Notes: generated from the sequence alone by a model not told the origin. DNA of 64,000 bases from an uncultured Ignavibacteriales bacterium (GCA_964520865.1 CAZFOY010000010.1:4303-68302); one strand, 5' to 3'. Shown: positions 56,363-57,094, numbered from the stretch's first letter. Translations and numbers: made by a program.

Positions 56363-57094
56363 CTATTCGGTGGCAGGCGCGGGCTTTAGTAAGCGGATCA
56401 TCTCTTCGAGCGCCCGTTCATACCCGAGCAGAATCGACCGGGCCCCGATCGCGTGTCCCACAATGAACTCGCTGATATTGCCCAGTTCGACCAGCGGAAG
56501 AATGTTCTTGTAAGTAACGCCTCGTCCGCCGAGGACGCGCAAATTTACCTTCGCTGCGATATTCGCGGCGTGATCGATCCGATCAAGTTCGTGCTGGGCT
56601 TCTTCAAAAGTCCTGGCCTCTGTAAATCCGGCACAGTTGATGAGCACAGCTGATGCTCCCGCTCGCGATGCCCCCTTAATCTCGTCCGGATCAGGCTCCA
56701 CGAAAAATCCGGCTTCGACTCCGAGTCCGACCAGCCGCGAGGCTATGGCGCCAAAGTCGACCGGTGTGGAGTTAAAGTTGATGGTAGTCGAGGGAACATC
56801 GCTGTCGGCATGATCGGCCACGAAGATGACAAGATGAGGTTTGATTTCCAGAACTTTCTCGATCAGATCATCGACCGGCGGAATCTCCACAACCAGTTTC
56901 GTCTTTACGATTCCCTTGAGAATATACAGATCGCGTTCCCGAATGAATCTTCGGTCCCGGCGCATTTGCACCGCTACACCCGCAGCACCGTACAACTCCG
57001 CCAGCACGGCCGCCTGGGCGGGGTCCGGTTCATTGAGACGGCGCATCTCCCGCAGCACGGCAAACAGATCAAGATTGACTATCAACGAAGACAC
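56363..57094 (-). CDS. PdxJ (pyridoxine 5'-phosphate synthase)-like protein with degenerate active site
   Basis: Overall PdxJ pattern (VNLD..LR..R...EPDP..AA..AE..GA.G, R.DRR.I, G.G.TY.N, VGHAI) but several catalytic His/Glu replaced; SD ggag 6 nt before GTG. Confidence 0.85.
   Translation of the reverse strand: MSSLIVNLDLFAVLREMRRLNEPDPAQAAVLAELYGAAGVAVQMRRDRRFIRERDLYILKGIVKTKLVVEIPPVDDLIEKVLEIKPHLVIFVADHADSDVPSTTINFNSTPVDFGAIASRLVGLGVEAGFFVEPDPDEIKGASRAGASAVLINCAGFTEARTFEEAQHELDRIDHAANIAAKVNLRVLGGRGVTYKNILPLVELGNISEFIVGHAIGARSILLGYERALEEMIRLLKPAPATE

Follow-up and report, generated by a model that had tools for sequence, protein, structure and literature searches.

Does a homolog of pyridoxine 5'-phosphate synthase that has lost nearly all of its catalytic residues still serve vitamin B6 synthesis, and what might it otherwise do between two rRNA-modifying enzymes? 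This question is raised by a PdxJ-like open reading frame (ORF) in the window, by which we mean the whole 64-kb stretch of DNA analyzed here, from an uncultured salt-marsh bacterium of the Zixibacteria. The sequence-only reading of this stretch had described a full-length gene that lacks the catalytic histidines, keeps the phosphate pocket and cannot make PNP. It had gone on to propose a metabolite-sensing scaffold or a new enzyme, possibly linked to ribosome maturation. The ORF and its gene row, from the head of the row downward, are as follows.

61583-62716, minus strand: holB, DNA polymerase III delta-prime, at the head of the conserved row
60640-61551, minus strand: PSP1-domain gene, near the head of the conserved row
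58705..60633, minus strand: metG, methionyl-tRNA synthetase, conserved row
57929..58705, minus strand: tatD-family hydrolase, conserved row
57132..57926, minus strand: rsmA/ksgA, 16S rRNA A1518/A1519 dimethyltransferase (TIGR00755, 243.5 bits against a cut-off of 171)
57106-57101, minus strand: Shine-Dalgarno sequence AAGGAG, read directly from the sequence, with a 6-nt spacer to the GTG
56363..57094, minus strand: PdxJ-like ORF, 243 aa, GTG start at 57094-57092, predicted (beta-alpha)8 barrel
55363..56355, minus strand: RluD-like (RluA family) 23S rRNA pseudouridine synthase with an S4 domain (TIGR00005, 306.8 against 192.7)

A full-length PdxJ homolog

The Pfam PdxJ profile (PF03740) matches the ORF product from end to end (E 1.8e-52; residues 4-235 against profile positions 2-233 of 234). 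Together with the AAGGAG sequence and its 6-nt spacer, this match agrees with the earlier description of a full-length gene with a strong Shine-Dalgarno sequence. The nearest solved structures are those of Salmonella and E. coli PdxJ, which align without gaps over 235 residues (E about 1e-38). We also compared the structure with E. coli PdxJ, as had been suggested, using an AF2 model built from an alignment of 36 orthologs (pLDDT 90.5, pTM 0.88). Foldseek superimposed this model on E. coli PdxJ (1ho1) with a TM of 0.91, and the rmsd to 1ho1, 5dlc and 3f4n was 1.5-2.4 A. Other folds, including TIM, ribulose-phosphate epimerase and IGPS, gave TM values below 0.7, and the predicted structure is that of a PdxJ-type (beta-alpha)8 barrel. 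Conserved residues were located on the product by secondary structure only.

Homology to the family did not extend to the profiles that define functional PdxJ. The ORF fell under all six NCBIfam equivalog cut-offs (TIGR00559 and NF003623-27), with a best score of 172.1 against 190 for NF003625 and a score of 144.5 against 192.75 for TIGR00559. The claimed placement between rsmA and rluD was borne out by the profile matches listed above, with the downstream synthase better called RluD-like (its RluD equivalog score of 298 is under the cut-off of 351). Only 37 bp separate the end of rsmA from the start of the PdxJ-like gene, and 7 bp separate its stop from the start of the RluD-like gene. A promoter and terminator scan gave no signal above chance. 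The RNA runs searched did not contain the gene, which occurred in salt-marsh DNA metagenomes only.

Replacement of residues invariant in canonical PdxJ

To judge the residue losses we used invariance among canonical PdxJ proteins. The reference set consisted of E. coli PdxJ and 55 representatives with 30-68% pairwise identity, taken from the results of an exhaustive search over 1.84 billion cluster representatives. Twenty positions were invariant across this set, and the ORF alters eight of them: H12L, H45Q, H52F, E96D, T103P, G106T, E153L and H193R. Since these positions are invariant in canonical proteins only 30-68% identical to one another, their replacement goes beyond chance. Further changes in the HMMER and MAFFT alignments are E48R, T102V, H155N and T156C, with T102 conserved in 96% of canonical PdxJ.

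Both alignments contain the motif changes that had been read from the sequence: VNIDH to VNLDL (H12L), TVHLREDRRH to AVQMRRDRRF (H45Q, E48R, H52F), IEIHTG to VLINCA (E153L, H155N, T156C) and AGHG to GGRG (H193R). They also agree on the retention of N9, R20, R47, E72, G194, G215 and H216, to which D11, R17 and R51 can be added. The reading of the EVTTEGG segment was right in that T102 and T103 are lost, but its register was off by one, as positions 100-106 pair with SDVPSTT rather than DVPSTTI.

Within the set of catalytic and substrate residues (H12, H45, H52, E72, E96, T102/T103, E153 and H193), the ORF retains E72 only, a residue invariant (100%) in the 55 canonical representatives. The description of a PdxJ homolog without its catalytic set is thus upheld by 8 of 20 invariant positions replaced in a protein with a full PF03740 match. 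Loss of the parent family's catalytic residues is one mark of a pseudoenzyme, and the ORF bears it. The putative phosphate site is present, formed by G192, G213, H214 and R18 of the ORF product (G194, G215, H216 and R20 in E. coli numbering). Its glycines are conserved at 100% (G215) and 98% (G194) in the window's subclade, and R20 is presumably contributed by the partner subunit. The roles assumed for E. coli PdxJ residues follow the structural literature (Garrido-Franco 2001; Franco 2002; Yeh 2002).

Orthologs and non-canonical subclades

Searching 5.8 billion proteins returned 148 relatives of the ORF product. The best 120 of the 148 are 53-97% identical to it, and the named ones are labeled Zixibacteria or GN15. 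Conservation of the substitutions in orthologs, which had been put forward as a check, was evident among these best 120 of 148: Q45 is kept in 104/120, P103 in 106/120, R193 in 113/120, R48 and C156 in 114/120 each, and D96 in 118/120. Full-length, intact ORFs occur in about 75 species at 37-97% identity. Many TPA_asm MAGs (L011, L014, L016, L017 and others) titled 'uncultured Ignavibacteriales bacterium' have the Zixibacteria-type row and a protein of the window's type, and these titles look like placeholder or wrong taxonomy.

We then tabulated residues at E. coli positions 9, 11, 12, 17, 20, 45, 47, 48, 51, 52, 72, 96, 102, 103, 153, 155, 156, 193, 194, 215 and 216. The positional orthologs from about 75 Zixibacteria genomes (GTDB species set) fell into at least four non-canonical residue sets, and none had the canonical set.

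Type A (the window's): N9 D11 x12 R17 R20 Q45 R47 R48 K51 Y52 E72 D96 x102 P103 L153 N155 C156 R193 G194 G215 H216
Type B: H45, E48 and E153 retained; E72Q, E96F, H193N
Type C: T45, H47, P48, S193
Type D: H45 and T103 retained; H, N or Y at 72; G at 193

Every subclade lacks H12 and H193. The E72Q and H193N changes of type B are classic substitutions that leave an enzyme competent to bind but dead in catalysis.

Non-canonical PdxJ-like clusters made up about half of the best 150 representatives. The four that could be placed on long contigs (P0241/P0391, P0248, P0261 and P0272) all lie in a metG-tatD-rsmA context. One of them, P0248, is intermediate, differing from E. coli at only six of the 21 tabulated positions (N9K, E48R, E153K, H155F, H193Q and H216Q). 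The shared genomic slot of the non-canonical types and the common context of the placed clusters argue that these genes are one orthologous lineage, which left the canonical state once and then diverged at the former catalytic positions.

Residues retained across types include D11, R17, P25, G38, D57, P88, N199, G215 and G226, together with a nearly invariant G194 and, in most proteins, R or K at position 51. Among them are fold determinants as well as elements that bind phosphate. A further signature, common to every non-canonical type and absent in canonical PdxJ, consists of IRDRDLYxLK in helix alpha2 and the single residues K66, E85, K87, D173, K184, E205 and F212 (E. coli numbering). In window numbering, R52, R54, Y57, K64, E83, K85, D171, D174, K182 and E203 are specific to the clade. 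The signature sits on helices alpha1, alpha2, alpha6 and alpha7, and mostly on outer helices. It could mark an interface, and the clade's narrower phylogenetic span may contribute to it. In one MAG (L072:6944-7653), one frameshift within an A-rich stretch breaks the PdxJ-like gene in two, which could reflect an assembly error or a real inactivation.

Selection and constraint on the former active site

Could the gene be a functionless relic in the course of being lost? Two Zixibacteria-like loci have lost it, the L072 copy is frameshifted, and the special constraint on the pocket is gone (see below). However, dN/dS was 0.027 at a dS of 0.48 against a 97%-identical ortholog (L005) and 0.037 against a second (L001). 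The former value is below those of the flanking housekeeping genes, which were 0.056 for rsmA and 0.081 for rluD. Full-length ORFs across about 75 species, the confident fold prediction and the strong Shine-Dalgarno sequence also speak against a relic. Given the low dN/dS and the intact orthologs, we rejected the decaying-pseudogene explanation, in line with the sequence-only reading, and the selection analysis already contradicts a relic to the point of making it scarcely credible. The gene therefore shows a second mark of a pseudoenzyme, namely an intact reading frame under purifying selection.

We next quantified constraint on the pocket by asking whether 20 pocket positions are, on average, more conserved than the full set of positions.

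Canonical PdxJ: pocket 0.95, all positions 0.58, p<1e-4
Type A: pocket 0.76, all positions 0.70, p=0.12
All positional orthologs: pocket 0.65, all positions 0.65, p=0.49

The former active site is thus without special constraint in the PdxJ-like lineage, which is a third mark of a pseudoenzyme.

These values bear on whether the type A barrel is a repurposed enzyme with a new active site acting on a different phosphorylated, more anionic substrate. Such a site would comprise E70, D94, C154, R46, R191, Q43 and N153 in window numbering. The new or kept polar residues of the type A pocket are 85-93% conserved (C156 93%, E72 93%, R48 91%, D96 89%, R193 89% and Q45 85%) and could support a new activity in the window's subclade. 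The very strong purifying selection and the retained phosphate-binding loops are in keeping with this. Against it, the type A pocket does not significantly exceed the protein average in conservation, and across all positional orthologs it does not exceed it at all. Sister subclades in the same slot have quite different pocket residues, including loss of E72, which makes a single shared chemistry unlikely. Moreover, no conserved neighbor points to a pathway. We consider a repurposed enzyme possible, though doubtful. Of the two proposals made from the sequence, the scaffold or ligand binder is the one toward which the results lean, since the pocket has lost its special constraint and the subclades carry different residue sets, and the new enzyme is less favored.

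An alternative PLP route in related genomes

A replacement for the PdxJ route had been suggested as something to look for, and one related genome has it. This is CP070674.1, a complete Zixibacteria chromosome, which encodes an intact PdxS, with both catalytic-lysine motifs, 9 kb upstream of its PdxJ-like ortholog. A second genome probably combines the two as well, since PdxS (P0146) and the PdxJ-like protein (P0048/L041) are both listed with a longest contig of 194,499 bp and thus probably share it. The PdxS of CP070674.1 used as a query returned at least 120 matches at 83-95% identity, and most of the named ones are labeled Zixibacteria. In two Zixibacteria contigs (L002:1-1452 and L007:5254-6885), a gene for an Rrf2-family regulator lies just upstream of pdxS.

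The 64-kb window itself contains no PdxS, PdxT, PdxA, PdxH, PdxK or YggS. Two weak tblastn matches within it turned out to be other proteins: the PdxA candidate at 11198-11500 is a sigma-54 response regulator, and the PdxT candidate at 2801-3238 is a generic glutamine amidotransferase. Likewise, no pdxA was found within 10 kb of the PdxJ-like gene in about 70 related loci.

Might the protein nevertheless have remained a pyridoxine 5'-phosphate synthase whose active site has diverged unusually far? Its orthologs carry that name in public records, and E72, R47, R51, D11, N9 and the phosphate loops are all retained. Set against this are the replacement of eight residues that are invariant in canonical representatives down to 30% identity, scores under every NCBIfam equivalog cut-off, and replacement residues that differ among subclades. 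The PdxS of CP070674.1, and probably of a second genome, also argues against a synthase, as does the lack of a nearby pdxA, although pdxA is the usual neighbor of rsmA elsewhere. We regard continued synthase activity as very improbable. Judged from its residues, the PdxJ-like protein has in all likelihood ceased to make vitamin B6, and the earlier statement that it cannot make PNP is, as an inference, a strong one.

Gene order and the association with rRNA maturation

About 75 Zixibacteria genomes in the GTDB species set, and several metagenome contigs, share the fixed row holB-PSP1-metG-tatD-rsmA-X-rluD, where X is the PdxJ-like gene. Among related loci, RsmA lies at most 400 bp upstream of the PdxJ-like gene in 60/65, and RluD lies at most 400 bp downstream in 50/61. 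Two Zixibacteria-like loci have the holB-PSP1-metG-tatD-rsmA row without the PdxJ-like gene. In L096, rsmA (4992-5804) directly overlaps rluD (5773-6795) by about 30 bp, and in L094:5001-8175 rsmA is followed by a different gene, a 706-aa ORF. The existence of these loci implies that some lineages can do without whatever role the PdxJ-like gene has. Distant relatives have the gene 3 kb from rsmA, with outer-membrane genes between, or after rluD without rsmA.

Other features of the row vary among relatives. Directly downstream of rluD, the window encodes a SagB-type nitroreductase-family dehydrogenase with a hydrophobic N-terminus (54515-55327, minus strand; TIGR03605, 144.7 bits), which is kept in the closest relatives (L010-L013 and L047) and not in more distant ones. 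At L090:1458-2846, the usual tatD slot between metG and rsmA is occupied by a 462-aa TatD-radical SAM fusion. The PdxJ-like gene of one type D relative (L077:5750-6457) follows lspA-rluD. Some 3.5 kb upstream of it, next to a divIVA-like gene, is a putative YggS/PLPBP-like ORF recognized by eye from its N-terminal sequence.

To place this synteny in context, we scanned metagenomes with an RsmA profile and obtained 80 rsmA loci unselected for pdx genes. These are mostly non-Zixibacteria and serve as a background sample rather than a Zixibacteria census. At 43/80 of these metagenomic loci (side set L100-L166), pdxA lies immediately upstream of rsmA. This is the pdxA-ksgA pairing of E. coli, and its frequency among unselected loci indicates that it is very widespread. 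An Omnitrophota MAG (L085:4267-11887) carries pdxA-rsmA-ftsH-folP-cdaA-like-pdxJ-acpS-nnrD-like in one row, in which pdxJ is canonical. This cluster unites both of the E. coli pdx linkages, pdxA-ksgA and pdxJ-acpS.

Gene fusions extend the pattern. We found proteins of about 400 aa (P0256, P0273 and P0306) in which the YbeY endoribonuclease is fused to PdxJ, one cluster of which includes WP_166032839.1 of Thermosulfuriphilus ammonigenes. The PdxJ half is fully canonical in two of these three representatives, while P0306 has E72K, E96Y and H193Q. The fusions give pdxJ one more connection, a circumstantial one, to genes of 16S rRNA maturation. The gene order in E. coli is era-recO-pdxJ, and Era, like YbeY and RsmA, works at the 16S rRNA 3' end. 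That pdx genes recur beside 16S 3'-end genes is notable, but it holds for catalytically intact PdxJ too.

It is against this background that a ribosome-biogenesis factor must be weighed, that is, a protein acting physically with RsmA and/or RluD, for example by coupling a metabolite signal to modification of the 16S 3' end or of 23S helix 69. The tight packing of the gene between rsmA and rluD on one strand, the frequency of both neighbors in related loci, and the pdxA-rsmA pairs and YbeY-PdxJ fusions elsewhere all favor such a role. Yet pdx-rsmA adjacency is ancestral and true of catalytic PdxA and PdxJ, and shared growth-rate regulation could explain it. The L096 and L094 loci manage without the gene, and distant relatives keep it away from rsmA. 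We therefore find a physical ribosome factor improbable. The ribosome-maturation link suggested by the sequence-only reading is weak, resting on synteny, and the rRNA-enzyme neighborhood of the PdxJ-like gene is probably mostly historical.

A proposed mode of action

With moderate confidence, we interpret the protein as a PdxJ-derived pseudoenzyme that retains the phosphate-binding cradle and binds without turnover. The ancestral pdxJ would have adjoined rsmA, a position that pdx genes occupy in many bacteria. PNP-synthase chemistry would then have been lost in the lineage leading to Zixibacteria, with H12 and H193 gone everywhere and other acid/base residues lost in varied combinations. PLP would be supplied by PdxS, as in one related genome and probably a second. 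The barrel was nevertheless kept intact, well folded and under strong purifying selection, in what is likely a single transcription unit with rsmA and rluD.

An anion or phosphate cradle would remain, formed by the backbone loops of G194 and G215, R20 from the partner subunit, R47, R or K at position 51, and D11. To this the window's subclade has added arginines through E48R and H193R. We infer ligand binding from these features: a phosphorylated, probably polyanionic, ligand may be held without turnover, and/or the protein may act as an oligomeric scaffold through its conserved outer helices. E. coli PdxJ is an octamer. Binding without turnover is the most likely mode given a retained cradle, lost catalytic residues and a barrel under selection.

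A more specific version is that a phylum-wide pseudoenzyme binds DXP, PNP/PLP or a polyanionic nucleotide and thereby gates the RsmA (KsgA) checkpoint in 30S maturation and/or RluD on the 50S subunit. We offer this as a long shot. If true, a defunct vitamin B6 enzyme would have become a sensor that links metabolite levels to ribosome assembly.

Comparison with known systems

Literature searches for a PdxJ pseudoenzyme, a 'PdxJ-like' family or Zixibacteria B6 metabolism returned nothing relevant. The family is thus unrecognized in the literature searched, and its members, deposited as functional synthases, are misannotated. The latest comparative study of how bacteria make PLP relies on pdxJ alone as the signature gene for the DXP-dependent route and considers it well annotated (PMC9997740). 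Because proteins of this family are deposited as 'pyridoxine 5'-phosphate synthase' and pdxJ is used as a signature, B6 pathway calls for Zixibacteria would be wrong, as would vitamin-exchange inferences for sediment communities. The family also offers a natural example of the fate of a complex condensation enzyme after pathway replacement, wherein the barrel and phosphate cradle are kept under strong selection while catalytic residues drift in a different way from one subclade to the next. Discovery of a ligand or partner would give the PdxJ fold its first moonlighting role and might explain the long-noted presence of pdx genes in ribosome-biogenesis operons.

The closest known system is E. 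coli PdxJ itself (EC 2.6.99.2; 1ho1, 1m5w; PF03740), with about 33% identity over an ungapped alignment and a model TM of 0.91. Both proteins have the phosphate loops with G194, G215 and H216 as well as R20, R47, R51, D11 and E72, and both genes lie among translation and ribosome genes. Unlike E. coli PdxJ, the window's protein lacks H12, H45, H52, E96, T102/T103, G106, E153 and H193 and scores under the equivalog cut-offs. Its relatives have PdxS (in one genome, and probably a second) and no nearby pdxA, and conservation within it no longer peaks at the pocket.

Plant PDX1.2, mentioned in two papers (PMC6071262, PMC11863972), is a pseudoenzyme paralog of PDX1/PdxS in the DXP-independent B6 pathway. 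It too is a B6 synthase homolog that lost its catalytic residues and was retained under selection, but it belongs to the other B6 synthase family, is unrelated in sequence, and acts in complexes with catalytic PDX1. We know of no catalytic PdxJ partner in genomes with the PdxJ-like gene.

YggS/PLPBP is a non-catalytic, PLP-binding TIM barrel of B6 homeostasis, of the alanine racemase N-terminal type and with a Schiff-base lysine. Because its barrel takes up a phosphorylated ligand related to B6, with no turnover known, it may be a functional analog, although its fold family and its Schiff-base lysine set it apart.

Finally, the YbeY-PdxJ fusions (such as WP_166032839.1) tie a PdxJ barrel to a 16S 3'-end factor, comparable to the adjacency of the PdxJ-like gene to rsmA. 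The window's protein is a dead barrel, whereas the PdxJ half is canonical in 2/3 fusion representatives, and what YbeY is joined to is therefore a working PNP synthase.
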